DNA from: Escherichia coli
GTDB lineage: Bacteria > Pseudomonadota > Gammaproteobacteria > Enterobacterales > Enterobacteriaceae
NCBI RefSeq assembly: GCF_048403405.1
Contig: NZ_CP183135.1
DNA length: 64,000 nucleotides
Reading direction: 5' to 3' (one strand)
A program made the position numbers and the translations under genes. This document shows positions 1 through 53,519 of this stretch, piece by piece. The notes beneath the pieces are model-generated. The model saw only the letters and a program-made list of their open reading frames with translations. It made no database searches and was not told the DNA's origin. How positions within the stretch are numbered: the stretch's first letter is position 1; each line of letters begins with the position of its first letter.

Positions 1-575
1 AATAAAAAGCCGCGGTAAATAGCAATAAATTGGCCTTTTTTATCGGCAAGCTCTTTTAGGTTTTTCGCATGTATTGCGATATGCATAAACCAGCCATTGA
101 GTAAGTTTTTAAGCACATCATCATCATAAGCTTTAAGTTGGTTCTCTTGGATCAATTTGCTGACAATGGCGTTTACCTTACCAGTAATGTATTCAAGGCT
201 AATTTTTTCAAGTTCATTCCAACCAATGATAGGCATCACTTCTTGGATAGGGATAAGGTTTTTATTATTATCAATAATATAATCAAGATAATGTTCAAAT
301 ATACTTTCTAAGGCAGACCAACCATTTGTTAAATCAGTTTTTGTTGTGATGTAGGCATCAATCATAATTAATTGCTGCTTATAACAGGCACTGAGTAATT
401 GTTTTTTATTTTTAAAGTGATGATAAAAGGCACCTTTGGTCACCAACGCTTTTCCCGAGATCTCATCTATTGAAACAGCTTGATAGCCTTTTTCAACAAA
501 CAATATTCGTGCTGAGTTAACCAGTGATTGATAGGTACTCTTAAAATTTTCTTGTTGATGATTTTTATTTTCCAT
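1..575 (-). CDS. tetC: TetR-family regulator, Tn10 TetC-like; the last ~6 codons lie beyond the window start
   Basis: Minus-strand frame open to the window edge with ATG at 573-575 (MENKNHQQENFKSTYQSLVNSARILFVEKGYQAVSIDEISG...), TetR-type N-terminal HTH; AT-rich and divergent from tetD as in the Tn10 tet region. Confidence 0.6.
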   Translation of the reverse strand, partial: MENKNHQQENFKSTYQSLVNSARILFVEKGYQAVSIDEISGKALVTKGAFYHHFKNKKQLLSACYKQQLIMIDAYITTKTDLTNGWSALESIFEHYLDYIIDNNKNLIPIQEVMPIIGWNELEKISLEYITGKVNAIVSKLIQENQLKAYDDDVLKNLLNGWFMHIAIHAKNLKELADKKGQFIAIYRGFL

Positions 576-662
576 GATAGATTTAAAATAACATACCGTC
601 AGTATGTTTATGGTATCATGATGATGTGGTCGTGACAATCTTAAGAACATTTAGGTTATTTT

Positions 663-1079
663 ATGTATATTGAACAGCATTCTCGCTATCAAAATAAAGC
701 TAATAACATCCAATTAAGATATGATGATAAGCAGTTTCATACAACGGTTATCAAAGATGTTCTATTATGGATTGAACATAATTTAGATCAGTCTTTACTG
801 CTTGATGATGTGGCGAATAAAGCGGGTTATACCAAGTGGTATTTTCAGCGGCTGTTCAAAAAAGTAACAGGGGTCACACTGGCTAGCTATATTCGTGCTC
901 GTCGTTTGACGAAAGCGGCTGTTGAGTTGAGGTTGACGAAAAAAACTATCCTTGAGATCGCATTAAAATATCAATTTGATTCCCAACAATCTTTTACACG
1001 TCGATTTAAGTACATTTTTAAGGTTACACCAAGTTATTATCGGCGTAATAAATTATGGGAATTGGAGGCAATGCACTGA
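663..1079 (+). CDS. tetD: AraC/XylS-family regulator TetD of Tn10 (138 aa)
   Basis: ORF-track protein MYIEQHSRYQNKANNIQLRYDDKQFHTT...SYYRRNKLWELEAMH recognised as TetD; its stop TGA (1077-1079) overlaps the IS10 inside end CTGAGAGATCCCC starting at 1076. Confidence 0.8.
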   Translation: MYIEQHSRYQNKANNIQLRYDDKQFHTTVIKDVLLWIEHNLDQSLLLDDVANKAGYTKWYFQRLFKKVTGVTLASYIRARRLTKAAVELRLTKKTILEIALKYQFDSQQSFTRRFKYIFKVTPSYYRRNKLWELEAMH

Positions 1080-2266
1080 GAGATCCCCTCATAATTTCCC
1101 CAAAGCGTAACCATGTGTGAATAAATTTTGAGCTAGTAGGGTTGCAGCCACGAGTAAGTCTTCCCTTGTTATTGTGTAGCCAGAATGCCGCAAAACTTCC
1201 ATGCCTAAGCGAACTGTTGAGAGTACGTTTCGATTTCTGACTGTGTTAGCCTGGAAGTGCTTGTCCCAACCTTGTTTCTGAGCATGAACGCCCGCAAGCC
1301 AACATGTTAGTTGAAGCATCAGGGCGATTAGCAGCATGATATCAAAACGCTCTGAGCTGCTCGTTCGGCTATGGCGTAGGCCTAGTCCGTAGGCAGGACT
1401 TTTCAAGTCTCGGAAGGTTTCTTCAATCTGCATTCGCTTCGAATAGATATTAACAAGTTGTTTGGGTGTTCGAATTTCAACAGGTAAGTTAGTTGCTAGA
1501 ACCCATGGCTCCTTTGCCGACGCTGAGTAGATTTTAGGTGACGGGTGGTGACAATGAGTCCGTGTCGAGCGCTGATTTTTTCGGCCTTTAGAGCGAGATT
1601 TATACAATAGAATTTGGCATGAGATTGGATTGCTTTTAGTCAGCCTCTTATAGCCTAAAGTCTTTGAGTGACTAGATGACATATCATGTAAGTTGCTGAT
1701 AGGTTTCCAGTTTTCCGCTCCTAGGTCTGCATATTGTACTTTTCCTCTTACTCGACTTAACCAGTACCAACCCAGCTTCTCAACGGATTTATACCATGGC
1801 ACTTTAAAGCCAGCATCACTGACAATGAGCGGTGTGGTGTTACTCGGTAGAATGCTCGCAAGGTCGGCTAGAAATTGGTCATGAGCTTTCTTTGAACATT
1901 GCTCTGAAAGCGGGAACGCTTTCTCATAAAGAGTAACAGAACGACCGTGTAGTGCGACTGAAGCTCGCAATACCATAAGTCGTTTTTGCTCACGAATATC
2001 AGACCAGTCAACAAGTACAATGGGCATCGTATTGCCCGAACAGATAAAGCTAGCATGCCAACGGTATACAGCGAGTCGCTCTTTGTGGAGGTGACGATTA
2101 CCTAACAATCGGTCGATTCGTTTGATGTTATGTTTTGTTCTCGCTTTGGTTGGCAGGTTACGGCCAAGTTCGGTAAGAGTGAGAGTTTTACAGTCAAGTA
2201 ATGCGTGGCAAGCCAACGTTAAGCTGTTGAGTCGTTTTAAGTGTAATTCGGGGTAATGACTCCAAC

Positions 2267-2770
2267 TTACTGATAGTGTTTTATGTTCAGATAATGCCCG
2301 ATGACCTTGTCATGCAGCTCCACCGATTTTGAGAACGACAGTGACTTCCGTCCCAGCCTTGCCAGATGTTGTCTCAGATTCAGGTTATGCCGCTCAATTC
2401 GCTGAGTGTAACGCTTGCTGATTACGTGCAGCTTTCCCTTCAGGCGGGATTCATACAGCGGCCAGCCATCCGTCATCCATACCACGACCTCAAAGGCCGA
2501 CAGCAGGCTTAGAAGACGCTCCAGTGTGGCCAGAGTGCGTTCACCGAATACGTGCGCAACAACCGTCTTCCGGAGCCTGTCATACGCGTAAAACAGCCAG
2601 CGCTGGCGCGATTTAGCCCCGACGTATCCCCACTGTTCGTCCATTTCCGCGCAGACGATGACGTCACTGCCCGGCTGTATGCGCGAGGTTACCGACTGCG
2701 GCCTGAGTTTTTTAAATGGCGGAAAATCGTGTTGAGGCCAACGCCCATAATGCGGGCGGTTGCCCGGCAT
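2267..2770 (-). CDS. insB: IS1 InsB
   Basis: ORF-track protein [16 protein letters not shown]...[13 protein letters not shown] (167 aa). Confidence 0.8.
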
Positions 2771-2964
2771 CCAACGCCATTCATGGCCATATCAATGATT
2801 TTCTGGTGCGTACCGGGTTGAGAAGCGGTGTAAGTGAACTGCAGTTGCCATGTTTTACGGCAGTGAGAGCAGAGATAGCGCTGATGTCCGGCGGTGCTTT
2901 TGCCGTTACGCACCACCCCGTCAGTAGCTGAACAGGAGGGACAGCTGATAGAAACAGAAGCCAC
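2689..2964 (-). CDS. insA: IS1 InsA
   Basis: ORF-track protein [43 protein letters not shown]... Confidence 0.85.
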
Positions 2965-3180
2965 TGGAGCACCTCAAAAACACCATCATACACTAAATCA
3001 GTAAGTTGGCAGCATCACCTAATTCGGGGCAGAATTGGTAAAGAGAGTCGTGTAAAATATCGAGTTCGCACATCTTGTTGTCTGATTATTGATTTTTCGC
3101 GAAACCATTTGATCATATGACAAGATGTGTATCCACCTTAACTTAATGATTTTTACCAAAATCATTAGGGGATTCATCAG

Positions 3181-3329
3181 GGTGATGCGTGCACTACGCA
3201 AAGGCCAGGCCTCAGCATTTTATTATGGTGATCCCCTGGGCGAAATGCGCCTGGTAAGCAGAGTTTTTGAAATGTAAGGCCTTTGAATAAGACAAAAGGC
3301 TGCCTCATCGCTAACTTTGCAACAGTGCC
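3181..3329 (+). mobile_element. IS26 right-end remnant (149 bp) abutting the IS10 outside end
   Basis: Sequence GGTGATGCGTGCACTACGCAAAGGCCAGG...CGCTAACTTTGCAACAGTGCC is identical to the 3' end of the two complete IS26 copies in this window. Confidence 0.85.
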
Positions 3330-3348
3330 GTGCAGACAGAAACCGTAA

Positions 3349-3585
3349 ACACCGGCATTGACATGCCGGGGAAGCCCTTATAGTACAATAATTCTCTATA
3401 TCCAAACTGACCCCGATGAGAAAAGCATGGAGACGTTGAGCACCAATCTGCAACTCGCCCGGCTGGTTGGCGTTCAGGGGACGCCGGCAACCATCATTGG
3501 CGACGAGATGATCCCCGGCGCGGTATCGTGGGAGACCCTTGAGGCGGTGGTGAAAGAAAAACTGGCGGTGGCCCATGCTCAGTAA
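3349..3585 (+). pseudogene. DsbA-family thiol:disulfide oxidoreductase, 3' fragment (ScsC-like), cut by the IS26 remnant
   Basis: C-terminal DsbA-like motif ...LQLARLVGVQGTPATIIGDEMIPGAVSWETLEAVVKEKL; in-frame stop directly after the IS26 boundary, no N-terminal half. Confidence 0.5.
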
Positions 3586-4081
3586 ACTGCGCCGCTGGCT
3601 GCGTGAAGGCGCGATCTTACTGGTTGTGCTGGCTGGCGTGATAATCCTGCTGGATGTCTGGCGTTCTCCGCAGATGCCGGCCATGTTTGACAGCACGCCG
3701 CTGCATACGCTGGACGGGGAAACCGTAACGCTGGCGTCGATCAGTGAAGAACGCCCGGTGCTGCTCTACTTCTGGGCGAGCTGGTGCGGTATCTGCCGTT
3801 TCACCACGCCGGATGTCGCCCGTTTGCAGTCGGAAGGGGAGAGCGTCATGACCATCGCGCTGCGTTCCGGTAATGACGGGGAGGTTTCCCGCTGGTTATC
3901 GCGTAAAAGGGTGACGTTCCCCGTCGTGAATGATAGCGGCGGTGAGATATCACGAAACTGGGAAATCAGCGTCACGCCAACGCTGGTGGTGGTGTCGAAG
4001 GGGCAGGTGGTAACTACGACCAGCGGCTGGACCAGCTACTGGGGCATGAAGTTACGTCTGTGGCGGGCAGCCATGTTTTGA
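3575..4081 (+). CDS. membrane-anchored thioredoxin-like protein (ScsD-like)
   Basis: N-terminal hydrophobic anchor followed by WCGIC (CxxC) thioredoxin motif; 168 aa. Confidence 0.6.
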   Translation: MLSKLRRWLREGAILLVVLAGVIILLDVWRSPQMPAMFDSTPLHTLDGETVTLASISEERPVLLYFWASWCGICRFTTPDVARLQSEGESVMTIALRSGNDGEVSRWLSRKRVTFPVVNDSGGEISRNWEISVTPTLVVVSKGQVVTTTSGWTSYWGMKLRLWRAAMF

Positions 4082-4317
4082 TAGCGTGCCGGGGAAACCC
4101 GGCATTTTTTAACCCATTGTAAGGATGTGTAAAACGAGCGGAGAGCGTGTTTTCTGTTATTTTTGCTGCTTTTTTACCGACGCCAGTTATTATTTTTTAC
4201 CGCTGCCTGATGTTGCAAACCTGAATTGATAATGGCATATCTGTTTTAATTGAATGAAAGTCTGTGATACGTTCAGGCGATTTTTTCGATTTCCATTTTG
4301 ACAGGGATAACAATTCA

Positions 4318-5079
4318 ATGCGCAAGGGTAAAATTATTGTTGCATCAATGATGGTGCTTTGTGTCCTTATTTTTGTTGCGGCGGCGGCATGGTTTATGCT
4401 GTTCCAGGGAGAAATGACGGAGCCGACAGAGGAGGAAAAACAGGCGGCAATTTTACACGCTGCGGGCCTGATGAAATCAGAGACCCAGGATAAAAAATCA
4501 GTCGAAACGCTCTATCATCGTTATATTATTCAACGCCATGTTAATTTAGATTCCGGCGAACTGGTGGCTGGCAGCAGCGCGGACACCGCGCGGCAGAAGT
4601 GTGAAAAACTTGCCCCTGAACGCGACCCAGCGCAGGTTCGTCAGCGCTGTACGGTGGCGGATGTGTTCTTTGTGAAAGATAAAAATAATGAAATTCAGCA
4701 GGTTATCATTCCAGTTACCGGTAAGGGTGCGAAATCCATGATGCATGCGTTTCTTGCTCTGGGGCTGGACGGTCGTACGGTGAGAAATCTGTATTATTAT
4801 CAGCAACGGGAAACGCCGTTTCTGGGGGCTAGGGTGGAAGACGCCAACTGGCGCAAACAGTGGCCAGGGAAACGATTATTAGATAACAGCGGACATCCTG
4901 CATTGAAAATAGTACAGGATAAACCTGAACATGCCGATGAATATACCGTTGACGGTATTTCCGGTGCGACGTTGACATCAACCGGCGTTGAGAAAAGTAT
5001 TAACTACTGGATGGGGCCGCAGGGATATGGTCAATTCTTACAGCGTCTTGCCAGCGATCGAAATAACCTTAATCTTTGA
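4318..5079 (+). CDS. FMN-binding-domain protein (NqrC/RnfG-like), membrane-anchored
   Basis: DGISGATLTS motif typical of covalent-FMN domains; N-terminal TM segment; start placed at in-frame ATG 4318 (MRKGKIIV...). Confidence 0.5.
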   Translation: MRKGKIIVASMMVLCVLIFVAAAAWFMLFQGEMTEPTEEEKQAAILHAAGLMKSETQDKKSVETLYHRYIIQRHVNLDSGELVAGSSADTARQKCEKLAPERDPAQVRQRCTVADVFFVKDKNNEIQQVIIPVTGKGAKSMMHAFLALGLDGRTVRNLYYYQQRETPFLGARVEDANWRKQWPGKRLLDNSGHPALKIVQDKPEHADEYTVDGISGATLTSTGVEKSINYWMGPQGYGQFLQRLASDRNNLNL

Positions 5080-5365
5080 ATATTGCTGTACGCAATAACG
5101 CGTTTTATTTCTGCCTGCCGATAATGAATAATATCACTGTCGGCAGGGGGATTTATTCCTCTGTTACCGCGCCTGCCTTGCCGTTAATTCCATGAGAAAA
5201 ACAGGGAGATAACGTCCCTTTTATCAACGCATAATGTGTGTGTTCATCACGATTTGATGAAATAAGTTTACATAACTTGTCGTCTGCTGACATTTTTATG
5301 ATCCAGGTCATGTATAACGCGACAAAAAGATATGATAATAATTATCATTTGTATTCTTTGGCGGT

Positions 5366-7312
5366 GTGCACGTGCGTAACTTCCGTAACTCTTTGTTGGT
5401 TACTCTCTTTGGCTTGTTTATAAGCATGAGTGTCTGGGCGTCGACGAATTATGCGCCTTTGATTGAAGATATCGAGCAACGTCTTGATAAAACAGCGGAA
5501 CTTTATCAGCAACAGCATGCCGACGAGGCGCGCCGCACGGTACAAATGGCCTATTTTGAGGTGTTCGAGAACCTGGAAGGGCCGATCCGCATCAACATTT
5601 CCGCGCGCAAAAGTTACGAGATGGAGAGCGCATTCGGCGAGATCCGTCGAATGATTGGCGAGAAAAAACCGCTCGCTGACGTCCAGGCGCGCATTGACTG
5701 GCTGAAAGCCGCACTGCGCGAAGTGGAACCGGTGCTGGATGGCGGACATCGTCTGGTGGCCGAAGAGCAGCACAACGCGCTGTCCAGGGACGACATTGCC
5801 GTTCACTGGCAGGAGAGTTTCAGGACGATCGACGATCTGCTGGCGCAGGCGGTCACTGAATATCAGGCCGGGAATTACAGCGTTGCCAGTCAGCACGTTC
5901 AACAGGCGCACTATCAGGGCTTTAAAAACTCTGAGATGGAGATGTCCCTCAGACAAAACCGTTCTGCAAAAGATGCCGCCTCCATTAACCAACAATTCTC
6001 ATCCCTGATTGCGCTGACCGCGCAACCTGACCATCTCAACGATGTCTCCTATCAGGTCACTACGCTGCTACAGGATATCGAGGATATCTTACCCGGCTTG
6101 CCAACCACCCGTGACGATCAGCAGGTTGCCGCAGCGCAAAGCGCAGACAACATTCCGGCGGCGGACGAGGGAAATAACCGCACCGACTGGGCTGAGGTGA
6201 CGACGGGAATTAACCAGAGCATTCAGGACGCGATAGCGCGCTATCAGGGCGGCGATGCGAAGAATGCGATTCTGGATATCCAGGATACCTACTTCGACCG
6301 CTTCGAAGCCAGCGGCATGGAAAACAAAATCGGCTCTCGCGATTCGGCATTTAAAACCACGCTGGAGGCGTATTTTACCCGCCTGGTCAGTCTGATGAAG
6401 GCCGGTCAGCCGGTTGAGCGCCTGAATGCAGAGGCCAGCGCGCTGACGCAGGATCTGCAAAAAGCCGTGACGATGCTGGGCGAAGGCGAAGAAACCCAGT
6501 GGAGTCTGCTGCTCTATAGTCTGATGATCATCGTGCGCGAGGGGCTGGAAGCGCTGCTGATTGTTGCGGCAATCGTGGCCTACATGGTGAAAAACAACCA
6601 TCAGGATAAGCTGCCGCTTATTCGTCAGTCGGTAATTGTGGCGCTGATCGCCAGCGTCATCACCGCCGCTATCTTCCAGATGCTGTTTACTAACTCCGGC
6701 GCCAGCCGTGAACTGCTGGAAGGCATAACGATGCTGATTGCCGTCGTGATGCTGTTCTTTATGAGTTACTGGCTGCTGTCCAAAGTGGAAGCGCGCCACT
6801 GGAAAGCCTGGCTGGAAGGCAAACTGTCTCATTCCCTGTCGCGAGGCTCCCTGGTCGGACTATGGCTGACCAGCTTCCTGGCGGTGTACCGCGAAGGGGC
6901 GGAAACGGTGCTGTTCTATTACGCTCTGATTGGCGATGCAAACACGGTATCCGGCCATATGGCGATTGGCGCCGGTTTTGTGATTGGCTGCGTGGTGCTG
7001 CTGCTCGCCTGGCTGGTGATGCGTTACTCAGTGGTGCGCCTGCCGCTGAAACCCTTCTTTATGTTTACCGGCAGTTTCATGTATCTGATGGCCTTCGTCT
7101 TTGCGGGCAAAGGCGTTCTGGAACTGGTGGAAGGCAAACTGTTCCAGCCTACGTTGATTAACGGCTTCCCTGAAATCAGCTGGCTGGGGATTTATCCCTA
7201 CGTGGAAACGTTGTTACCGCAGGTCGTATTGCTGCTCGCGGCGCTGGTGGCGCTGTGGGTGATGCGGCGCAAAAGCGCGGTTCCCGGGGAGACGATAAAA
7301 AATAACCCATAA
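5366..7312 (+). CDS. FTR1-family iron permease with large N-terminal periplasmic domain (FetM-like)
   Basis: 648 aa; signal peptide, ~370-aa soluble domain, then multi-TM FTR1-type region (...REGLEALLIVAAIVAYM...). Confidence 0.7.
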   Translation: MHVRNFRNSLLVTLFGLFISMSVWASTNYAPLIEDIEQRLDKTAELYQQQHADEARRTVQMAYFEVFENLEGPIRINISARKSYEMESAFGEIRRMIGEKKPLADVQARIDWLKAALREVEPVLDGGHRLVAEEQHNALSRDDIAVHWQESFRTIDDLLAQAVTEYQAGNYSVASQHVQQAHYQGFKNSEMEMSLRQNRSAKDAASINQQFSSLIALTAQPDHLNDVSYQVTTLLQDIEDILPGLPTTRDDQQVAAAQSADNIPAADEGNNRTDWAEVTTGINQSIQDAIARYQGGDAKNAILDIQDTYFDRFEASGMENKIGSRDSAFKTTLEAYFTRLVSLMKAGQPVERLNAEASALTQDLQKAVTMLGEGEETQWSLLLYSLMIIVREGLEALLIVAAIVAYMVKNNHQDKLPLIRQSVIVALIASVITAAIFQMLFTNSGASRELLEGITMLIAVVMLFFMSYWLLSKVEARHWKAWLEGKLSHSLSRGSLVGLWLTSFLAVYREGAETVLFYYALIGDANTVSGHMAIGAGFVIGCVVLLLAWLVMRYSVVRLPLKPFFMFTGSFMYLMAFVFAGKGVLELVEGKLFQPTLINGFPEISWLGIYPYVETLLPQVVLLLAALVALWVMRRKSAVPGETIKNNP

Positions 7313-7349
7313 TCGTTGTATAGCCGTTGTTTTAGACGAGAGGATACGT

Positions 7350-7880
7350 TTGATGACCATGAAGAAAACCCTGATTGCCAGCGCAGTGATGGCCAGCATT
7401 TTCATTGCGCCAGCCGCGTTTGCTTTTAAAGAGTACCCGGCAGGCGAGCCTGTCACCATGAATGAAATGGAGCTGGCGGCCGTTTACCTGCAACCGATTG
7501 ATATGGAACCGCGCGGCATGGGCTTACCGGCAGCAAAAGCCGATGTTCACCTTGAAGCGGATATCCACGCTGTAGAAGGCAATAAAAACGGCTTTGGCGC
7601 AGGGGAATGGATCCCGTACCTGACCATCAGCTACACCCTGGTCAACAACGACACGGGCGAAAAACAGGAAGGCACCTTCATGCCGATGGTTGCCAGCGAT
7701 GGCCCGCACTATGGCGCGAACATCAAAATGATGGGCGTGGGCAACTATAAAGTGACCTACCACATTGAACCGCCGTCAAAAGCCGGGATGCATCGCCATA
7801 CTGACAGCGAAACAGGCGTAGGCCGCTGGTGGAAACCGTTTGATGTGAGCTACGAGTTTAAATATGTCGGTCTGAACTAA
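7350..7880 (+). CDS. periplasmic P19-type iron-binding protein (FetP-like)
   Basis: 176 aa with signal peptide, immediately downstream of the FTR1 permease as in FetMP/P19 systems. Confidence 0.7.
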   Translation: MMTMKKTLIASAVMASIFIAPAAFAFKEYPAGEPVTMNEMELAAVYLQPIDMEPRGMGLPAAKADVHLEADIHAVEGNKNGFGAGEWIPYLTISYTLVNNDTGEKQEGTFMPMVASDGPHYGANIKMMGVGNYKVTYHIEPPSKAGMHRHTDSETGVGRWWKPFDVSYEFKYVGLN

Positions 7881-7983
7881 AACCGACTAACCAACGCGCC
7901 AGGAGGATTCCCCCTTCTGGCGCGTTGGTCAGACCGATCATATGCCCGTCGCTTAATTCAACCCGCCGTACAGAGTCGAAGTT

Positions 7984-9363
7984 ATGAGTTACTTTTTCGT
8001 CACGACGCTACAGGTCTTTTTCTGCATTGCGCTTCTTTCCGGTGTTCTCTGGAGTCGAAACGATCCTCCCTCTTTACGTCCGCTGACCTGGACGCTGCTG
8101 ACCGGGCTGATTGCCGGCGTGCTGGCGGGACTGTTTATTCACGGCAGCCAACCGGTACAACTGCTGCTGGTTGGGGCGGAGGTCATGGTATCGCTGCTGT
8201 TTGTCCTCAGTTTCTGGTGGGCTTCAACGCGTATCCGCTATCTGTGGCAGGGGATTCTGATTTTCGGCGCTGCCCGCCATTGGGCGCTGGACCCTAATCT
8301 GGGCGGGCTGACCAGTACGCATGTGCTGAATACTGACCTGCTGTTAAACCTGACGGCCGTCGTTCTCGCTTTTGCGATCCTCTGTCTGGCGGGCGTACTC
8401 TGCGCGATGCTGCTGCGGCGTATTCGCGGCCTGTACTGGCCGTTAACGCTGATTCTGCTGGTGATGATCTGGCTGCCGCTGAGCGGCAACCTGCTGTTGT
8501 TGCTGATGAAATTACAGGTTGTTCCGCTGGGAAAATCACTGCTGAGCTTCGTGGCGAAAGTCACAAATAACACGGCGCTGTATAACTGGGCGGGAGCCGC
8601 GCTGCTGCTGGCCCTGGCGCTGTGCTGGCTTCCGGCGCTGTTGCGGGCTTTTCGACAGACGCGGGAAACCGAAGAACCGATTGCTCACCGTCTGGCGCTG
8701 GCGCAGCGTCGCAACGCTTTGCGGCTGTGGTTGGTCACAATCGGCTGCGCGGTGGTCGTTATCGCAGGCCAACTGTGGTGGGATAAAGTGGCCTCGCAGC
8801 CGCCGCAACTCTCTGAAGCCGTGCCCGTAACGCTGGGGAGCGATGGCATGGTGCGCCTGCCGGTTGAACAGCTTCGTGACGGTAAACTGCATCGTTTCGT
8901 CTGGGTGGCGGACGATGGCAAAGCGGTGCGCTTCTTCGTGATTAACCGCTATCCCGACAAGCTGCGTTTTGGCGTGGTGTTCGACGCCTGCCTGCTGTGC
9001 GGCGATCAGGGTTATGTCATGGAGGGCAATCAGGTTATCTGCGTCGCCTGCGGAGTGCATATTTTTATTCCGTCTATCGGCAAGGCCGGTGGCTGTAACC
9101 CGGTGCCGATTGAAAACTGGCACAATGATGAAAAAGAGCTGGTGATCCCCGGTAAAGAACTGGCGACAGGGGTGAACTACTTCTCGACGGTCATGACTAT
9201 TAAAGTGACCGATCCGGTCGATGGTTCAACGTTGACCAATACCTCAGCCGATTACAAATACAGCTATGGCGGCAAGACCTGGTTCTTCTCGTCAGAGGCT
9301 AACTATGAACGCTTCCGTGAAACGCCGGAGCAGTTTGTTCCTGCCGACATGAGGGAGGAATAA
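7984..9363 (+). CDS. polytopic membrane protein with C-terminal Cys-rich metal-binding domain (FetA/Cj1660-like)
   Basis: 459 aa; N-terminal multi-TM half; C-terminal CLLCGDQGY...CVACGVHIF...GGCNPVP and GGKTWFFSSEANYERF. Confidence 0.55.
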   Translation: MSYFFVTTLQVFFCIALLSGVLWSRNDPPSLRPLTWTLLTGLIAGVLAGLFIHGSQPVQLLLVGAEVMVSLLFVLSFWWASTRIRYLWQGILIFGAARHWALDPNLGGLTSTHVLNTDLLLNLTAVVLAFAILCLAGVLCAMLLRRIRGLYWPLTLILLVMIWLPLSGNLLLLLMKLQVVPLGKSLLSFVAKVTNNTALYNWAGAALLLALALCWLPALLRAFRQTRETEEPIAHRLALAQRRNALRLWLVTIGCAVVVIAGQLWWDKVASQPPQLSEAVPVTLGSDGMVRLPVEQLRDGKLHRFVWVADDGKAVRFFVINRYPDKLRFGVVFDACLLCGDQGYVMEGNQVICVACGVHIFIPSIGKAGGCNPVPIENWHNDEKELVIPGKELATGVNYFSTVMTIKVTDPVDGSTLTNTSADYKYSYGGKTWFFSSEANYERFRETPEQFVPADMREE

Positions 9364-15819: not shown

Positions 15820-18228
15820 CTAAGACTGTTTTTTGTACAATATGGTGTCGACTGTGCGTAATGAGCGGTATTTTCCGGATCCCAGCTTAAGATTATTACG
15901 CCAGACGTAATCTCCACTCAGATTGATATGTTCCCAGCCCAGGGGAGAAAGATGAGATACCAGTTGCTCATTTATCGGGATACCTTTTCGTTTTAGTGAC
16001 TCAATAGCTCTTTCTATATATACCGTGTTCCACAACGTGATCGCCGCTGTCAGTAACGTCAGCCCGCTGGCGCGGTAACTCTGATTCTCCAGCCCACGAT
16101 CCCTTATTTCACCCAGACGGTGCATAAAGACCGCTCGCGCAAGGGCATTACGGGCCTCACCCTTATTCAGCCCCGCCTGTACGCGTCGGCGCAGACCGGG
16201 ATCACGGAACCAGTCCAGCATAAATAGTGTCCGCTCAATGCGGCCAATCTCTCTCAGCGCTTTGGCAAGTCCATTCTGTTTTGGGTAACTGGCTAACTTT
16301 TTCATCATCAGCGATGCGGTGACTGTCCCCTGCTTAATCGAGGTTGCCAGGCGCAATACCTCATCCCAGTGTGCCTCAATGTCTTTGATATTCAGGCTGG
16401 TTGTTGATATGACGGACTGAAGCCCCGGATAGCGTTCGGCCTTTCCATGAATAAACAGCCGCTTGTCATGAAGATCCCGGATCCTCGGCGCAAAAGCGAA
16501 TCCCAGCAGGTGCATCAGGGCGAAAACATGTTCAGTGAAGCCTGCGGTATCGGTGTAATGCTCGGTAATTTCCAGATCGCTTTCATGGTACAGCAGGCCA
16601 TCAAGCACGTGGGTTGAGTCGCGCACCCGGCTGATCACTTTGGCATAGAACGGGCTGTATTGGTCTGAGATATGCGTATAAATCTGCACGCCCGGCTCCT
16701 GACCATATTTAAGATTGACCTGACCGGCATAACGTCCGTGACTGCCTACCCGAAAGTTCTGCCCGTCTGACGATGATGTTGTCCCGTCGCCCCAGAATGC
16801 GGCCAGAGGCCGCGCTTTCTGAGCGTTGACCAGCTCGGCCAGTGCCGCTGAATAAGTTTCATCTCTGATGTACCATGCCTGAATACCTTCGAGTGACGAT
16901 TTTGTTGCCCCCGGGCAGGACTCCGCCATTTTTGTCAGCCCCAGATTGATGCCGTCGGCCAGAATGGTGGTCAGCAACAGTCTTCCGTCTTTTGGTCTGA
17001 CGTTATTATTTTTGAGGTGCGCGAAGTGACGCGTAAACCCCGTCCAGCTGTCCACTTCTTCCAGTATCTCTGTAATTTTCGGATGAGGAAGCATGCCATA
17101 AACCAAATCGGCAAAGGGCGAAACACCCGAAGGGACGCTGTTCTCCAGCGGAGTGATTTTTACTCCTTTATCTGAAATATCAACATCGGGCAAATCACCG
17201 GCAAGCGCCATCGCGTTAACTTCTTCCAGACGCGATGCAAGAAGCGTCATACGGGCCTGAAGATATGCCTGGCAATCGGTCTGAACGGCCAACTGTAACT
17301 GGTCATTGTGGCGGGATTTCTCAAACTCAGCAGTCGGGATGAGATAATCATCAAAATTTCTGTAGCGGCGCGATCCTTTTACCCAGATATCACCGGAACG
17401 TAGCGCCCCCTTGAGTTCATTCATTACGCAAAACTCGTAGTACTTGCGGTCGATTCCTGAAGGCGTGAGTACCAGTTTTCGCCAGCTTTCAGGGATAAAT
17501 CCTGTTGGCGCCGATAGCGGCACTTTACGAAGTTGTTTACGGTACATTTCCCTGATGGTGTCCAGCGCATCGCTGAGCGTCTGCGCCGCAGGTGTCGCCA
17601 TGAACTGCAATGCTGACAGCATACGCGGGGCGTATTTACGCAGCGTACTGTATTTTTCGGTGATCAGGTGAAGCGGGTCGAAATTGCCCTTACGGGACAG
17701 AAACCGTGTTTCTTCCAGGCTGTTGATGAACTCCTGCCAGGGAAGGACATCTTCTATCGCTGCCCAGGGATCTTCACCGGATTCTCTGGCATGCAGTAGT
17801 GCCTGACCGACAGTAAAATATTGCTTCAACTTGCTCTGGATGAGTTTCCCCGTCAGCTGAAGCCTCTCGGCTTGTGTGCGTTTTGCCTGGCTGAACAGAG
17901 TGCCCAGAATACGTTCGTGCAGTTCGATAACCTCATCAGTCAGTGTGGCCCGCGCTTCCTGAATGACACAAACCAGCGTAGCGTAACGTCTGACATCGGT
18001 GAATTTAGCCAGATCTCTGCTGCTCATTTTCCGGCCCTCACGCGCCAGTTTAAGCAACCTGTTCTGGTGAACGGAAAGTGCAATACCATCAGGCAACCCC
18101 AGCGCAGCGATGGAATTAAGCCGGTCGATATGTTGCAGCACATTTTTACCGTTTATTTTACCCGGAGGCTGTAGCAGCCATGCCAGACGGGAAGGTTGTT
18201 CACCCTCTGATATGAGCAGGCTGTCGAG
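15820..18228 (-). pseudogene. tnpA: Tn3-family (Tn21-subgroup) transposase TnpA, N-terminal ~190 codons removed by IS26
   Basis: The 999-aa track ORF is TnpA-like only downstream of the IS26 boundary; its first ~190 aa are antisense read-through of IS26. Confidence 0.85.
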
Positions 18229-19048
18229 GGCACTGTTGCAAATAGTCGGTGGTGATAAACTTATCATCCCCTTTTGCTGATGGAGCTGCACATGAACCCA
18301 TTCAAAGGCCGGCATTTTCAGCGTGACATCATTCTGTGGGCCGTACGCTGGTACTGCAAATACGGCATCAGTTACCGTGAGCTGCAGGAGATGCTGGCTG
18401 AACGCGGAGTGAATGTCGATCACTCCACGATTTACCGCTGGGTTCAGCGTTATGCGCCTGAAATGGAAAAACGGCTGCGCTGGTACTGGCGTAACCCTTC
18501 CGATCTTTGCCCGTGGCACATGGATGAAACCTACGTGAAGGTCAATGGCCGCTGGGCGTATCTGTACCGGGCCGTCGACAGCCGGGGCCGCACTGTCGAT
18601 TTTTATCTCTCCTCCCGTCGTAACAGCAAAGCTGCATACCGGTTTCTGGGTAAAATCCTCAACAACGTGAAGAAGTGGCAGATCCCGCGATTCATCAACA
18701 CGGATAAAGCGCCCGCCTATGGTCGCGCGCTTGCTCTGCTCAAACGCGAAGGCCGGTGCCCGTCTGACGTTGAACACCGACAGATTAAGTACCGGAACAA
18801 CGTGATTGAATGCGATCATGGCAAACTGAAACGGATAATCGGCGCCACGCTGGGATTTAAATCCATGAAGACGGCTTACGCCACCATCAAAGGTATTGAG
18901 GTGATGCGTGCACTACGCAAAGGCCAGGCCTCAGCATTTTATTATGGTGATCCCCTGGGCGAAATGCGCCTGGTAAGCAGAGTTTTTGAAATGTAAGGCC
19001 TTTGAATAAGACAAAAGGCTGCCTCATCGCTAACTTTGCAACAGTGCC
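18229..19048 (+). mobile_element. IS26 copy 1 (820 bp)
   Basis: 14-bp IRs GGCACTGTTGCAAA at 18229 and ...TTTGCAACAGTGCC at 19048. Confidence 0.95.
18292..18996 (+). CDS. tnpA: IS26 transposase Tnp26
   Basis: [57 protein letters not shown]... Confidence 0.9.
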   Translation: MNPFKGRHFQRDIILWAVRWYCKYGISYRELQEMLAERGVNVDHSTIYRWVQRYAPEMEKRLRWYWRNPSDLCPWHMDETYVKVNGRWAYLYRAVDSRGRTVDFYLSSRRNSKAAYRFLGKILNNVKKWQIPRFINTDKAPAYGRALALLKREGRCPSDVEHRQIKYRNNVIECDHGKLKRIIGATLGFKSMKTAYATIKGIEVMRALRKGQASAFYYGDPLGEMRLVSRVFEM

Positions 19049-19094
19049 TTTAAGCGTGCATAATAAGCCCTACACAAATTGGGAGTTAGACATC

Positions 19095-19694
19095 ATGAGC
19101 AACGCAAAAACAAAGTTAGGCATCACAAAGTACAGCATCGTGACCAACAGCAACGATTCCGTCACACTGCGCCTCATGACTGAGCATGACCTTGCGATGC
19201 TCTATGAGTGGCTAAATCGATCTCATATCGTCGAGTGGTGGGGCGGAGAAGAAGCACGCCCGACACTTGCTGACGTACAGGAACAGTACTTGCCAAGCGT
19301 TTTAGCGCAAGAGTCCGTCACTCCATACATTGCAATGCTGAATGGAGAGCCGATTGGGTATGCCCAGTCGTACGTTGCTCTTGGAAGCGGGGACGGACGG
19401 TGGGAAGAAGAAACCGATCCAGGAGTACGCGGAATAGACCAGTTACTGGCGAATGCATCACAACTGGGCAAAGGCTTGGGAACCAAGCTGGTTCGAGCTC
19501 TGGTTGAGTTGCTGTTCAATGATCCCGAGGTCACCAAGATCCAAACGGACCCGTCGCCGAGCAACTTGCGAGCGATCCGATGCTACGAGAAAGCGGGGTT
19601 TGAGAGGCAAGGTACCGTAACCACCCCATATGGTCCAGCCGTGTACATGGTTCAAACACGCCAGGCATTCGAGCGAACACGCAGTGATGCCTAA
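19095..19694 (+). CDS. aac(6')-Ib-cr: aminoglycoside/fluoroquinolone acetyltransferase AAC(6')-Ib-cr
   Basis: [16 protein letters not shown]...; both cr substitutions visible (GDGRWEEE = Trp to Arg, TTPYGPAVY = Asp to Tyr). Confidence 0.9.
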
Positions 19695-19790
19695 CCCTTC
19701 CATCGAGGGGGACGTCCAAGGGCTGGCGCCCTTGGCCGCCCCTCATGTCAAACGTTGGGCGAACCCGGAGCCTCATTAATTGTTAGCCGT
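19695..19790 (+). other. attC recombination site of the aac(6')-Ib cassette (approximate)
   Basis: Imperfect inverted repeat ...GGGCTGGCGCCCTTGGCCGCCCC... between cassette genes, ending near GTTAGCC. Confidence 0.45.
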
Positions 19791-19824
19791 TAAAATTAAG
19801 CCCTTTACCAAACCAATACTTATT

Positions 19825-20655
19825 ATGAAAAACACAATACATATCAACTTCGCTATTTTTTTAATAATTGCAAATATTATCTACAGCAGCGCCAGTGCAT
19901 CAACAGATATCTCTACTGTTGCATCTCCATTATTTGAAGGAACTGAAGGTTGTTTTTTACTTTACGATGCATCCACAAACGCTGAAATTGCTCAATTCAA
20001 TAAAGCAAAGTGTGCAACGCAAATGGCACCAGATTCAACTTTCAAGATCGCATTATCACTTATGGCATTTGATGCGGAAATAATAGATCAGAAAACCATA
20101 TTCAAATGGGATAAAACCCCCAAAGGAATGGAGATCTGGAACAGCAATCATACACCAAAGACGTGGATGCAATTTTCTGTTGTTTGGGTTTCGCAAGAAA
20201 TAACCCAAAAAATTGGATTAAATAAAATCAAGAATTATCTCAAAGATTTTGATTATGGAAATCAAGACTTCTCTGGAGATAAAGAAAGAAACAACGGATT
20301 AACAGAAGCATGGCTCGAAAGTAGCTTAAAAATTTCACCAGAAGAACAAATTCAATTCCTGCGTAAAATTATTAATCACAATCTCCCAGTTAAAAACTCA
20401 GCCATAGAAAACACCATAGAGAACATGTATCTACAAGATCTGGATAATAGTACAAAACTGTATGGGAAAACTGGTGCAGGATTCACAGCAAATAGAACCT
20501 TACAAAACGGATGGTTTGAAGGGTTTATTATAAGCAAATCAGGACATAAATATGTTTTTGTGTCCGCACTTACAGGAAACTTGGGGTCGAATTTAACATC
20601 AAGCATAAAAGCCAAGAAAAATGCGATCACCATTCTAAACACACTAAATTTATAA
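19825..20655 (+). CDS. blaOXA-1: class D beta-lactamase OXA-1
   Basis: MKNTIHINFAIFLIIANIIYSSASASTDISTVASPLFEGTEGCFLLYD... 276 aa. Confidence 0.9.
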   Translation: MKNTIHINFAIFLIIANIIYSSASASTDISTVASPLFEGTEGCFLLYDASTNAEIAQFNKAKCATQMAPDSTFKIALSLMAFDAEIIDQKTIFKWDKTPKGMEIWNSNHTPKTWMQFSVVWVSQEITQKIGLNKIKNYLKDFDYGNQDFSGDKERNNGLTEAWLESSLKISPEEQIQFLRKIINHNLPVKNSAIENTIENMYLQDLDNSTKLYGKTGAGFTANRTLQNGWFEGFIISKSGHKYVFVSALTGNLGSNLTSSIKAKKNAITILNTLNL

Positions 20656-20792
20656 AAAATCTAATGGCAAAATCGCCCAACCCTTCAATCAAGTCGGGAC
20701 GGCCAAAAGCAAGCTTTTGGCTCCCCTCGCTGGCGCTCGGCGCCCCTTATTTCAAACGTTAGACGGCAAAGTCACAGACCGCGGGATCTCTT

Positions 20793-21233
20793 ATGACCAA
20801 CTACTTTGATAGCCCCTTCAAAGGCAAGCTGCTTTCTGAGCAAGTGAAGAACCCCAATATCAAAGTTGGGCGGTACAGCTATTACTCTGGCTACTATCAT
20901 GGGCACTCATTCGATGACTGCGCACGGTATCTGTTTCCGGACCGTGATGACGTTGATAAGTTGATCATCGGTAGTTTCTGCTCTATCGGGAGTGGGGCTT
21001 CCTTTATCATGGCTGGCAATCAGGGGCATCGGTACGACTGGGCATCATCTTTCCCGTTCTTTTATATGCAGGAAGAACCTGCATTCTCAAGCGCACTCGA
21101 TGCCTTCCAAAAAGCAGGTAATACTGTCATTGGCAATGACGTTTGGATCGGCTCTGAGGCAATGGTCATGCCCGGAATCAAGATCGGGCACGGTGCGGTG
21201 ATAGGCAGCCGCTCGTTGGTGACAAAAGATGTG
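20793..21233 (+). pseudogene. catB3: chloramphenicol acetyltransferase CatB3, 3' end removed by IS26
   Basis: [38 protein letters not shown]... hexapeptide-repeat CAT; homology stops at the IS26 IR at 21234. Confidence 0.85.
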
Positions 21234-22053
21234 GGCACTGTTGCAAAGTTAGCGATGAGGCAGCCTTTTGTCTTATTCAAAGGCCTTACATTTCAAAAAC
21301 TCTGCTTACCAGGCGCATTTCGCCCAGGGGATCACCATAATAAAATGCTGAGGCCTGGCCTTTGCGTAGTGCACGCATCACCTCAATACCTTTGATGGTG
21401 GCGTAAGCCGTCTTCATGGATTTAAATCCCAGCGTGGCGCCGATTATCCGTTTCAGTTTGCCATGATCGCATTCAATCACGTTGTTCCGGTACTTAATCT
21501 GTCGGTGTTCAACGTCAGACGGGCACCGGCCTTCGCGTTTGAGCAGAGCAAGCGCGCGACCATAGGCGGGCGCTTTATCCGTGTTGATGAATCGCGGGAT
21601 CTGCCACTTCTTCACGTTGTTGAGGATTTTACCCAGAAACCGGTATGCAGCTTTGCTGTTACGACGGGAGGAGAGATAAAAATCGACAGTGCGGCCCCGG
21701 CTGTCGACGGCCCGGTACAGATACGCCCAGCGGCCATTGACCTTCACGTAGGTTTCATCCATGTGCCACGGGCAAAGATCGGAAGGGTTACGCCAGTACC
21801 AGCGCAGCCGTTTTTCCATTTCAGGCGCATAACGCTGAACCCAGCGGTAAATCGTGGAGTGATCGACATTCACTCCGCGTTCAGCCAGCATCTCCTGCAG
21901 CTCACGGTAACTGATGCCGTATTTGCAGTACCAGCGTACGGCCCACAGAATGATGTCACGCTGAAAATGCCGGCCTTTGAATGGGTTCATGTGCAGCTCC
22001 ATCAGCAAAAGGGGATGATAAGTTTATCACCACCGACTATTTGCAACAGTGCC
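21234..22053 (-). mobile_element. IS26 copy 2 (820 bp), inverted relative to copy 1
   Basis: IRs at 21234 (GGCACTGTTGCAAAGTTAGCG...) and 22053; identical Tnp26 ORF on minus strand. Confidence 0.95.
21286..21990 (-). CDS. tnpA: IS26 transposase Tnp26
   Basis: Same 234-aa protein as copy 1. Confidence 0.9.
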
Positions 22054-22389
22054 CCATCAGGGACAAAGATCTGGCTGGTCGCTGGCATCACCGATATGAG
22101 AAACGGCTTCAACGGCCTGGCGGCAAAGGTGCAGACGACGCTGAAAGACGATCCGATGTCAGGTCACGTTTTTATCTTCCGTGGGCGTAATGGCAGTCAG
22201 GTAAAGCTCCTCTGGTCTACCGGCGATGGACTGTGTCTGCTGACCAAACGGCTGGAGCGCGGCCGCTTCGCCTGGCCGTCAGCCCGGGATGGCAAAGTGT
22301 TCCTCACACCGGCACAGCTGGCGATGCTCCTTGAAGGTATCGACTGGCGGCAGCCTAAAAGACTGCTTACGTCCCTGACTATGTTGTAA
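22054..22389 (+). pseudogene. tnpB: IS66-family TnpB (Orf2), first codons removed by IS26
   Basis: ...WLVAGITDMRNGFNGLAAKVQTTLKDDPMSGHVFIFRGRNGSQVKLLWSTGDGLCLLTKRLERGRF... Confidence 0.8.
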
Positions 22390-23271
22390 GCCTCTTTATC
22401 CTGGTCGACGCTGAATGAGCCTGGTAATATACCCGGTATGAGCAGCTCACTTCCTGACGATATCAATGCACTGAAACGTCTCCTTGCCGAACAGGAGGCG
22501 CTGAACCGTGCCCTGCTGGAAAAGCTGAACGAGCGTGAACGCGAAATAGACCATCTGCAGGCGCAGCTGGATAAACTCCGCCGGATGAACTTCGGCAGTC
22601 GTTCCGAAAAAGTCTCCCGCCGTATCGCACAAATGGAAGCCGATCTGAACCGGCTTCAGAAAGAGAGCGATAGAGAGCGATACGCTGACTGGTAGGGTGT
22701 ATGACCCGGCAGTACAGCGTCCGTTGCGTCAGACCCGCACCCGTAAGCCGTTCCCTGAATCACTACCCCGTGACGAAAAGCGGCTGTTGCCTGCGGCGCC
22801 GTGCTGCCCGAACTGCGGCGGTTCACTGAGCTATCTGGGCGAGGATACCGCCGAACAGCTGGAGTTGATGCGTAGCGCCTTCCGGGTTATCCGGACGGTA
22901 CGGGAAAAACATGCCTGTACTCAGTGCGATGCCATCGTGCAGGCACCTGCACCTTCGCGGCCCATCGAGCGGGGTATCGCCGGACCGGGGCTGCTGGCCC
23001 GCGTGCTGACCTCGAAGTATGCAGAGCACACCCCGCTGTATCGCCAGTCAGAAATATACGGCCGGCAAGGTGTGGAGCTGAGCCGTTCACTGCTGTCGGG
23101 CTGGGTGGATGCATGCTGCCGGCTGCTGTCTCCGCTGGAAGAGGCGCTTCATGGCTATGTGCTGACTGACGGTAAGCTCCATGCTGATGACACGCCTGTC
23201 CCGGTGCTGTTGCCAGGCAATAAGAAAACGAAGACCGGGCGGTTATGGACCTACGTTCGTGACGACCGTAA

Positions 23272-25402
<2,131 letters not shown>

Positions 25403-37965: not shown

Positions 37966-38880
37966 ATGCTCTCAATAAAAAAAGTAACCATGCTCTTGGG
38001 GTGCCTAGTCCTCACCTGCTCGATAGCATTTCAGGCGAGTGCAGCTGAAAAATTCAAGGTCATTACAACTTTTACCATCATCGCAGATATGGCCAAAAAC
38101 GTGGCTGGAGATGCTGCAGAAGTCTCATCCATAACCAAGCCTGGTGCAGAAATTCATGAGTATCAGCCTACCCCTGGCGATATTAAACGTGCGCAGGGGG
38201 CACAACTGATTCTCGCCAATGGTATGAATCTGGAATTGTGGTTCCAACGCTTTTACCAGCATCTCAATGGGGTTCCAGAAGTAATTGTCTCTTCGGGTGT
38301 GACGCCAGTAGGGATCACCGAAGGGCCCTATGAGGGCAAACCTAACCCCCATGCCTGGATGTCGCCAGATAATGCTCTGATTTACGTCGATAATATTCGT
38401 GATGCGTTTATAAAATACGATCCGATAAATGCACAAACCTACCAACGTAATGCCGATACTTATAAAGCCAAGATTACCCAAACCCTTGCCCCCCTGCGTA
38501 AGCAGATTGCGGAACTCCCTGAGAATCAGCGATGGATGGTCACCAGTGAAGGGGCTTTTTCTTATCTCGCACGCGATTTGGGGCTAAAAGAGCTTTATCT
38601 GTGGCCGATTAATGCCGATCAACAAGGAACACCGCAGCAGGTACGTAAGGTTGTTGATATAGTTAAGAAAAATCATATCCCGGCAGTCTTTAGCGAGAGT
38701 ACGATTTCCGATAAACCAGCGCGTCAGGTTGCGCGTGAAACCGGCGCGCACTACGGTGGTGTGCTCTATGTCGATTCCCTGAGCACAGAAAACGGCCCGG
38801 TACCTACGTATATCGACCTTCTGAAGGTTACTACCAGTACGCTGGTACAGGGAATTAAAGCCGGAAAAAGGGAGAAATAA
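37966..38880 (+). CDS. sitA: Mn/Fe ABC transporter periplasmic binding protein SitA
   Basis: 304 aa, signal peptide, first of four co-oriented overlapping ABC genes. Confidence 0.85.
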
Positions 38881-44611: not shown

Positions 44612-44746
44612 TGTAATGTTTCAACACCATGTATTAATTGTGTTTATTTGTAAAATTAATTTTTCTGACAATAACATTTCTCGTTGATAATGAGAATCAT
44701 TATTGACATAATTGTTATTATTTTACTGTGTAGGAGCTGTTTGATT

Positions 44747-50435: not shown

Positions 50436-50516
50436 GGAAAACGCAGCCGGAGGCTGCTTCTTTAACTCGCTACACAGCATCTTTGGGCTGATTTTTTCCG
50501 CCCGTATGGAGGAATA

Positions 50517-53243: not shown

Positions 53244-53519
53244 GTGGCTTCTGTTTCTATCAGCTGTCCCTCCTGTTCAGCTACTGACGGGGTGGTGCGT
53301 AACGGCAAAAGCACCGCCGGACATCAGCGCTATCTCTGCTCTCACTGCCGTAAAACATGGCAACTGCAGTTCACTTACACCGCTTCTCAACCCGGTACGC
53401 ACCAGAAAATCATTGATATGGCCATGAATGGCGTTGGATGCCGGGCAACAGCCCGCATTATGGGCGTTGGCCTCAACACGATTTTACGTCACTTAAAAAA
53501 CTCAGGCCGCAGTCGGTAA
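53244..53519 (+). CDS. insA: IS1 InsA
   Basis: 91-aa InsA ORF. Confidence 0.85.

Follow-up and report, generated by a model that had tools for sequence, protein, structure and literature searches.

The first 3,329 bp of the window (the whole 64,000-nucleotide stretch of Escherichia coli DNA analyzed here, from contig NZ_CP183135.1) very probably represent the right arm of the tetracycline-resistance transposon Tn10 (tetC-tetD-IS10-Right) in the multiresistance region of an IncF plasmid, where four mobile-element events appear from comparison of sequences to have left a layered scar. Over its full 64 kb, the window matches the IncF plasmid pCREC571-1, with 2 mismatches and 2 gaps. The scar, made of a Tn10 end, an IS1, and an IS26 stub, is confirmed and is an ordinary one, already described in the pTS14 paper (PMC7347964).

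The right arm of Tn10

The features at positions 1 to 4081 are as follows, with the basis for each in parentheses.

1 to 575, minus strand: tetC of Tn10, its last 6 codons removed by the window edge (NCBIfam Tn10_TetC equivalog, residues 1-191 of 197)
663 to 1079, plus strand: tetD, an AraC/MarA-type regulator of 138 aa (open reading frame list)
1076 to 2251, minus strand: inner part of IS10-Right, from IS10 bp 1329 to bp 154 (terminal sequence, reconstruction)
2244 to 2251, no strand: left 8-bp IS1 target duplication TAATTCGG, IS10 bp 161-154 (sequence)
2252 to 3019, minus strand: complete IS1, 768 bp (terminal repeats, open reading frames, profile matches)
2267 to 2770, minus strand: insB', within IS1
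2689 to 2964, minus strand: insA, within IS1
2707 to 2716: IS1 frameshift motif TTTAAAAAAC
3020 to 3027, no strand: right 8-bp IS1 target duplication TAATTCGG (sequence)
3028 to 3180, minus strand: outer part of IS10-Right (153 bp), whose outside end is at 3180 (100% identical to R100 Tn10 8987-9147)
3066 to 3135, plus strand: intact gene for RNA-OUT, the antisense RNA of IS10 (Rfam RF00240)
3071 to 3073: ATG of the IS10 transposase, whose first 18 codons then run into IS1
3181 to 3329, plus strand: IS26 fragment, bp 672-820 (149/149 compared with full IS26 copies)
3182 to 3274: last 31 codons of Tnp26, followed by the stop (3275 to 3277) and the right terminal repeat (3316 to 3329)
3330 to 3585, plus strand: 3' end of a DsbA/ScsC-type gene truncated by IS26 (PGAP annotation of pCREC571-1, "DsbA family protein, missing N-terminus")
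3575 to 4081, plus strand: intact ScsD-like thioredoxin-fold gene (NCBIfam thioredoxin-fold matches)

The flank at 3330 to 4081 is the beginning of the plasmid's putative iron-uptake cluster. TetC scored 445 bits against the NCBIfam Tn10_TetC model (cut-off, 425), and its sequence is that of R100 Tn10 tetC. The AraC-family matches of TetD in the profile search scored under their specific cut-offs. The TGA stop of tetD (1077 to 1079) overlaps the IS10 inside end, CTGAGAGATCCCC, which begins at 1076, as the initial annotation had stated. This overlap is native to Tn10, since window positions 1 to 2253 align gap-free to R100 Tn10 bp 6744 to 8996.

IS10 spans positions 1076 to 3180 and has the makeup of the element (1,329 bp, outside and inside ends, and a 402-aa DDE transposase) only once IS1 and one copy of the repeat are taken out in silico. 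The reconstructed element carries an intact 402-codon transposase gene (404 bits against an IS4-family model) and shows 100% identity with the IS10 of pMG101-B and pR85_1, which is uninterrupted in both. As present, the gene is split after codon 18, and the inner segment holds codons 16 to 402 with neither promoter nor start codon. The copy belongs to the IS10-Right type (1 difference when compared with R100 IS10R, 16 with R100 IS10L); the R100 comparison places Left-specific bases at IS10 bp 24, 25, 27, 47, 83, and 107. RNA-OUT matched RF00240 over its full length (1-70 of 70) with 98.8 bits (gathering score, 41). Both IS10 ends and the RNA-OUT gene are still intact.

An IS1 nested in IS10 with an 8-bp duplication, splitting the transposase, had also been described. 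Indeed, TAATTCGG occurs at 2244 to 2251 and again at 3020 to 3027, and the insertion lies after transposase codon 18. A 9-bp duplication is obtained only if the terminal G of IS1 is counted as target; otherwise the repeat is 8 bp. The inserted element is 768 bp long, has IS1-type terminal repeats and an intact insA, insB', and TTTAAAAAAC frameshift site, and is transcribed in the same direction as the IS10 transposase. These features agree with those of IS1 in general: 768 bp, imperfect inverted repeats at the ends, an insA/insB' pair with an A6C frameshift site, and target duplications of 8 to 9 bp. Its identity to the remaining IS1 copies in the replicon is 95 to 97%, which makes it a separate arrival. 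In pTS14, 8-bp direct repeats surround the IS1 in IS10R (PMC7347964).

The genes tet(B) and tetR(B), presumed to lie upstream of the window, are found immediately upstream in the near-identical pCREC571-1, in the order catA1-IS1-truncated ORF-jemC-tetR(B)-tet(B); with the tetC and tetD of the window, they make up the tetR-tetA(B)-tetC-tetD module of Tn10. The remnant as a whole corresponds to R100 Tn10 bp 3407 to 9147 at 99.95% identity. At its left edge a different IS1, beside catA1, abuts Tn10 bp 3407 without a target duplication and stands in place of IS10L, jemA, and the first part of the ORF after jemA. The initial annotation had also anticipated another IS10 copy upstream and the missing IS26 portion elsewhere in the replicon, but the whole-plasmid rebuild (pCREC571-1, 171,863 bp) contained neither a second IS10 nor an IS26(1-671/680) piece. 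The module is bounded by IS10-Right only and not by two inverted IS10 copies, and no 9-bp target duplication surrounds it, the right flank being IS26 bp 672 to 680 (GGTGATGCG). The element is therefore a Tn10 remnant and does not function as Tn10.

Two trivial explanations were considered and rejected: an assembly artefact, because more than 100 finished plasmids contain the same 3.6 kb with 100% identity and the structure recurs in hundreds of independent finished plasmids, and chance resemblance, by the exact matches.

The joint between IS10 and IS26

The IS10 outside end (3180) directly abuts the last 149 bp of IS26 (3181 to 3329), as first reported, and all 149 positions are identical to bp 672 to 820 of the full copies at 18229 to 19048 and 21234 to 22053. 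The window contains 5 occurrences of the IS26 terminal repeat, where chance would predict 0.08. The stub retains one of the two 14-bp terminal repeats of the 820-bp, tnp26-encoding element and is a non-functional fragment.

In pR85_1 (Klebsiella pneumoniae; NZ_CP091583.1), an IS10 lies within IS26 with bp 672 to 680 duplicated on both sides, and in pEC21Z137-66K, IS26(1-680) is joined to the IS10 inside end, forming the reciprocal junction with the complementary 9 bp. The joint in the window looks like a true transposition of IS10 into IS26, a reading supported because the same IS26 9-mer is targeted, with a 9-bp duplication, in other plasmids. This is consistent with the earlier suggestion that Tn10 inserted into, or recombined with, an IS26. 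The core consensus of Tn10 targets is NGCTNAGCN; GGTGATGCG matches it at 3 of 6 positions, and IS26 bp 672 to 680 are therefore no obvious IS10 hotspot. Despite this, IS10 has entered the site in both orientations, and it may be a recurrent target.

It is highly improbable that the joint arose instead by illegitimate recombination or by an IS26-mediated deletion that chanced to end at an IS10 terminus. Such an origin would fit a replicon that has neither the reciprocal junction nor a 9-bp duplication, but the joint coincides exactly with the terminal base of IS10, pR85_1 proves this 9-mer to be an IS10 target that is duplicated on insertion, and pEC21Z137-66K holds the complementary junction. 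Furthermore, IS26-mediated deletions terminate at IS26 termini, not within IS26. In a check for inversion, none of the other IS26 ends in the plasmid was accompanied by a partner of the 8-bp IS26 flank GTGCAGAC.

Two routes could have led to a transpositional joint. A whole composite Tn10 may have inserted into IS26 bp 672 to 680, with an adjacent deletion by the catA1-side IS1 then removing IS26(1-680), IS10-Left, jemA, and the beginning of the ORF after jemA; we give this route slightly less than an even chance. This lineage would then need no more than two steps, Tn10 bp 3407 to 9147 are contiguous and include the native tetD/IS10 junction, the outside end is used at the joint, as insertion of a whole Tn10 demands, and IS1 abuts Tn10 bp 3407 without a duplication. 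However, a search for IS26(1-680) (ending in ...AAGGTATTGAGGTGATGCG) joined to the IS10 outside end, the junction that this route needs, gave 16 candidates and found the two contiguous in pR85_1 only. That junction belongs to a lone Right-type IS10 in the opposite orientation and was rejected as proof of whole-Tn10 insertion; the IS26(1-680)/inside-end junction would then demand a third independent insertion at the same 9 bp.

Alternatively, a lone IS10 may have inserted into IS26 in the orientation seen in the window, and homologous recombination with the IS10-Right of a resident or incoming Tn10 brought tetD alongside, a course whose probability we likewise place just short of one-half. The IS26(1-680)/IS10 inside-end junction that it would leave, with the exact complementary 9 bp, is retained in pEC21Z137-66K, and together with pR85_1, two insertions would account for all four observed junction types. 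It requires an extra recombination step, however, and the pEC21Z137-66K junction could be an independent insertion, the site having been used in the other orientation too. The reciprocal product of the insertion is absent from this replicon, and insertion of a whole Tn10 and of a lone IS10 are therefore indistinguishable here.

Order of events and fate of the tet module

The proposed history has four steps. An IS26 would have been present in or beside the scsC-like gene. IS10 transposase would then have joined the IS10-Right outside end to the 9-bp IS26 target (bp 672 to 680), either through insertion of a whole Tn10 or through that of a lone IS10, with later recombination between it and the IS10-Right of Tn10. 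In the third step, the left part (IS26 bp 1 to 680, IS10-Left, jemA, and the beginning of the following ORF) would have been lost, leaving the catA1-side IS1 against Tn10 bp 3407; the absent target duplication suggests either an IS1-mediated adjacent deletion or recombination. Last, a different IS1 would have entered after transposase codon 18 and generated the 8-bp duplication. The one part of this order that comparison among plasmids shows is that the fourth step followed the second and third.

A search with a query whose flanks were both shorter than 28 bp found the IS10/IS26 joint without IS1 in 19 PLSDB plasmids, among them pMG101-B (NZ_CP070963.1), which upholds the earlier view that IS1 arrived after the joint had formed. 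pMG101-B has the same order, catA1-IS1-truncated Tn10-tetD-IS10-149-bp IS26-scsD, and differs in that its IS10 is intact without IS1 and in one extra G in the tetC-tetD spacer. Because this arrangement exists with an intact IS10, IS1 came last, after the loss of the left IS10. The parent of pMG101-B is a Salmonella Typhimurium plasmid isolated in Boston in 1973, and pMG101-B itself is a laboratory stock that was rearranged during storage (PMC8417528).

The reverse order, with IS1 in IS10 before the IS26 joint and the IS1-free forms arising by precise excision, is very improbable, and precise loss of IS1 in pMG101-B is unlikely. Precise excision of insertion sequences does occur, at low frequency, which lends this order no direct support; against it stand the 19 IS1-free plasmids with the joint, one of the 1973 lineage, and a non-exhaustive spread sample in which no IS1-interrupted IS10 had a flank other than IS26.

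The initial annotation had further proposed that IS1 fixed the tet module in place, and this did not hold. The left IS10 was already gone in the IS1-free pMG101-B; therefore, IS1 did not fix the module. Nor is the module fixed at all: tetC-tetD is contiguous with the joint in only 121 PLSDB plasmids, compared with 536 carrying the joint, and IS26 has deleted the tet module in some others. Resistance due to tet(B) should be unaffected. With one IS10 lost and the sole transposase gene split, the unit would be immobile as Tn10. For tet(B) in these plasmids, this means that mobility by Tn10 is gone and that movement or loss would proceed through IS26 or IS1 activity, homologous recombination, or plasmid conjugation.

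Transcription of RNA-OUT is directed at the outside end and, beyond it, the IS26 stub and scsD. Its promoter, pOUT, is presumably present, given the RF00240 match and the IS10 literature. A simple promoter/terminator scan of positions 2900 to 3700 found no terminator-like site, including between RNA-OUT and scsD; it gave two promoter-like matches, at the IS1/IS10 boundary, a number near chance, and did not recover pOUT. We consider it unlikely that the stub, which comprises 153 bp from the outer part of IS10 (pOUT/RNA-OUT included) and 149 bp of IS26, acts as an outward promoter for both the scsD-like gene and the neighbouring iron-uptake cluster instead of being a neutral scar.

Distribution and comparison with known systems

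The IS1/IS10/IS26 three-way junction was found in 536 of 5,426 complete E. coli genomes (~10%), and the stub persists at this frequency, also where tet is gone. As a marker of one family of IncF multiresistance regions, the junction is exact and very common; it goes back to a plasmid isolated in 1973 and can be used to follow this lineage and to order rearrangements within it. Its value is practical, not conceptual, and it implies neither a new mechanism nor a new element.

The Tn10 of R100/NR1 (NC_002134.1; 9,147 bp) has the order IS10L-jemA-jemB-jemC-tetR-tetA(B)-tetC-tetD-IS10R and shares with the window the tetD/IS10R overlap and the IS10R-type sequence. Unlike R100 Tn10, the window lineage lacks IS10L, jemA, and the initial 76 bp of the ORF that follows, its IS10R is split by IS1, and its outside end lies inside IS26; R100 Tn10 is flanked by a 9-bp backbone target duplication (CGCTCTGCC), whereas none surrounds the window remnant. 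pR85_1 shares with the window an identical IS10 sequence and the same IS26 9-mer target (672 to 680) but its IS10 stands alone, is oppositely oriented, and retains both halves of IS26 with the 9-bp duplication; tet genes are absent. The pTS14 paper describes the same truncated Tn10, with IS10L and jemA deleted and IS10R split by IS1 (PMC7347964). pTS14 and pJSWP006-1 (AP018939) belong to the same lineage as the window, and the same iron-uptake cluster then follows (PMC7347964). Their records match the junction query in three pieces. They differ in an extra full IS26 in IS10R, which yields three IS10R segments, whereas the IS10R of the window has IS1 only.

Architecture of the tet remnant

The left end of the window had been described in the initial annotation, from sequence alone, as a Tn10 remnant in which an IS1 is nested in an IS10 that abuts an IS26 fragment. 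Sequence reading and a script check bore out all of its coordinates.

Features of the remnant (window numbering)
to 575, minus strand: tetC, cut by the window start (NCBIfam Tn10_TetC, 445 bits against a cut-off of 425, residues 1-191 of 197)
663-1079: tetD
from 1076: IS10 inside end (CTGAGAGATCCCC...)
2244-2251 and 3020-3027: TAATTCGG repeat on both flanks of IS1
2252-3019, minus strand: IS1, 768 bp, with insA, insB' and the frameshift site TTTAAAAAAC all intact
3066-3135: intact RNA-OUT gene, pointing to the IS26 stub and scsD (Rfam RF00240, 98.8 bits)
to 3180: IS10 outside end (...GGGGATTCATCAG)
3181-3329: IS26 stub, 149/149 identity to bp 672-820 of the two full IS26 copies in the window

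The inside end of IS10 includes the tetD stop codon (1077-1079). In silico removal of IS1 and one repeat copy restored an IS10 of 1329 bp whose 402-codon transposase gene is uninterrupted; IS1 enters that gene after codon 18. The window contains five occurrences of the IS26 terminal repeat, where chance would give 0.08. An assembly artefact was ruled out, as more than 100 finished plasmids carry this 3.6 kb at 100% identity.

Resistance conferred by tet(B) should be unaffected. The split IS10 transposase has its promoter, start codon and initial 18 codons at 3020-3073 and the rest of its codons beyond IS1; since both IS10 ends are intact, mobilization in trans is conceivable. A sequence scan of 2900-3700 found no terminator-like site, so transcripts from the retained stub of IS10 might conceivably read into scsD and on into the iron-uptake cluster.

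Genetic surroundings and order of events

pCREC571-1 (NZ_CP183118.1), an IncF plasmid with FIA, FIB and FII replicons from a urinary E. coli isolate from Taiwan, matches the complete 64-kb window (one mismatch over 1-43665; one mismatch and two gaps over 43535-64000) and therefore served as a proxy for the upstream sequence. As had been anticipated, tet(B) and tetR(B) are immediately to the left, together with the ArsR-type gene jemC, a hypothetical ORF and an N-terminally truncated monooxygenase-like ORF; further left are an IS1 (plus strand), catA1, a GNAT gene and a Tn21/TnAs3-type transposase. We rebuilt the plasmid in full (171,863 bp) and searched it for IS10, IS26 and IS1. Neither the second IS10 sought upstream nor the missing portion of IS26 (bp 1-671) was present anywhere in the 171,863 bp. 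The plasmid holds five full IS26 copies and the 149-bp stub, and eight full or partial IS1 copies; the nested IS1 is 95-97% identical to the full-length ones and matches none. The 8-bp flank of the stub, GTGCAGAC, was not found beside any other IS26 end in pCREC571-1.

Elsewhere in the window, two full inverted IS26 copies bracket an aac(6')-Ib-cr/blaOXA-1/truncated catB module (18229-22053), the left one also cutting a Tn3-family transposase gene (15820-18228). Nested insertion sequences recur at 22015-25946, an IS66-family element split by IS100 (istA, 23469-24491; istB, 24488-25270), and two more divergent IS1 copies lie at 36898-37665 and 53189-53945. A TonB-dependent heme/hemoglobin receptor gene (26807-28776) is apparently frameshifted, with an open frame of only 454 amino acids, and is annotated as such in pCREC571-1. 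The IncF backbone (34007-64000) carries RepFIB (34007-34984), sitABCD (37966-41415), vapBC, ccdAB, repE and sopAB, as well as aerobactin genes iucABCD-iutA (44684-52718), with iucD frameshifted according to the pCREC571-1 annotation. pCREC571-1 also carries blaNDM-5, outside the part matching the window.

A junction query with flanks too short to seed alone was searched against PLSDB. Nineteen plasmids have the outside end of IS10 fused to IS26 bp 672 and lack IS1 at this position. Among them, pMG101_B (NZ_CP070963.1) is ordered catA1-IS1-truncated Tn10-tetD, followed by an intact IS10 (1329 bp, 100% identical to the reconstructed IS10 of the window), the same 149-bp IS26 stub and scsD. pMG101 was isolated in Boston in 1973, and its authors noted a single ISVsa5 (= IS10) downstream of tetD (PMC8417528). 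IS1 was thus inserted after the joint between IS10 and IS26 had formed and after IS10-Left had been lost; it was rightly placed last, pMG101_B having the joint and the truncated Tn10 with IS10 intact. The data lend no support to the proposed fixing of the tet module by IS1, since one arm of the composite was already gone when IS1 arrived. The module is not fixed in place: in NZ_CP020515.1 and NZ_CP023845.1, for example, a full IS26 has removed all DNA to the left of IS10 bp 959, and tetC-tetD is contiguous with the joint in only 121 PLSDB records, versus 536 with the three-way IS1/IS10/IS26 junction. The tetC-tetD spacer of pMG101_B is longer than that of the window by a single G (position 583); the window agrees with R100 there, so the additional G is probably either a variant of pMG101_B or an error in sequencing.

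Origin of the IS10/IS26 joint

The joint falls at the last base of IS10, inside IS26. IS26 activity is not known to yield joints inside IS26 at an IS10 terminus; IS10 transposition does. In pR85_1 (Klebsiella pneumoniae), a lone IS10 of identical sequence, opposite in orientation to that of the window, lies inside IS26 with a 9-bp duplication of bp 672-680 (GGTGATGCG). In pEC21Z137-66K (E. coli), IS26(1-680) runs directly into the inside end of IS10, which is exactly the counterpart to the window junction expected of a lone IS10 in window orientation.

IS10 at the IS26 9-mer
pR85_1, locus L003: 8471-10628
pEC21Z137-66K, locus L007: 6997-10518
window: 3181-3189

Between them, the window and these two plasmids show each of the four junctions that can form at this 9-mer, and IS10 has hit the site at least twice. 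The initial annotation had Tn10 inserting into, or recombining with, an IS26; the joint looks like a product of IS10 transposition, and two routes to it fit the window equally well. Either a whole Tn10 entered IS26 and its left part was then removed by an IS1-mediated deletion, or a lone IS10 entered IS26 and then recombined with the IS10-Right of a Tn10.

Repeated use of one IS26 9-mer by IS10 is mildly unexpected. The Tn10 core consensus is NGCTNAGCN; the target matches it at only 3 of 6 positions, and IS26 holds eight sites that match better. The 9-mer was used in both orientations and in unrelated plasmids. In pEC21Z137-66K the unit IS26(1-680)-IS10(1329-659) is duplicated in tandem. The 9 bp of the tetD end beside the native IS10R inside end (GGCAATGCA, 1067-1075) resemble GGTGATGCG (3181-3189) at 6 of 9 positions, a likeness across which a BLAST alignment even ran and which may reflect IS10 target preference or chance.

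Comparison with R100 and previously described plasmids

Tn10 of R100 is 9147 bp long and flanked by the duplication CGCTCTGCC. The remnant corresponds to its bp 3407-9147 (3 mismatches over 5590 bp); missing are IS10-Left, jemA (gltS-like) and the initial 76 bp of the ORF that follows. The window IS10 has one difference from R100 IS10-Right (bp 203), compared with 16 from IS10-Left, which identifies it, on sequence grounds, as IS10-Right in its native position beside tetD. That the tetD stop overlaps the inside end is usual for Tn10 and not peculiar to the remnant.

Of 5,426 complete E. coli genomes, 536 carry the three-way junction, as do 536 PLSDB plasmids. The remnant is a real, already known and very common mosaic of well-understood insertion sequences; the only points left over are the repeated targeting of a single IS26 9-mer by IS10 and possible outward transcription from the IS10 stub. 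The same truncated Tn10, with IS10L and jemA deleted and IS10R disrupted by IS1 with 8-bp direct repeats, has been described in pTS14, where it adjoins the same iron-uptake cluster, and also occurs in pJSWP006-1; unlike in the window, an extra IS26 also interrupts IS10R in pTS14 (PMC7347964).
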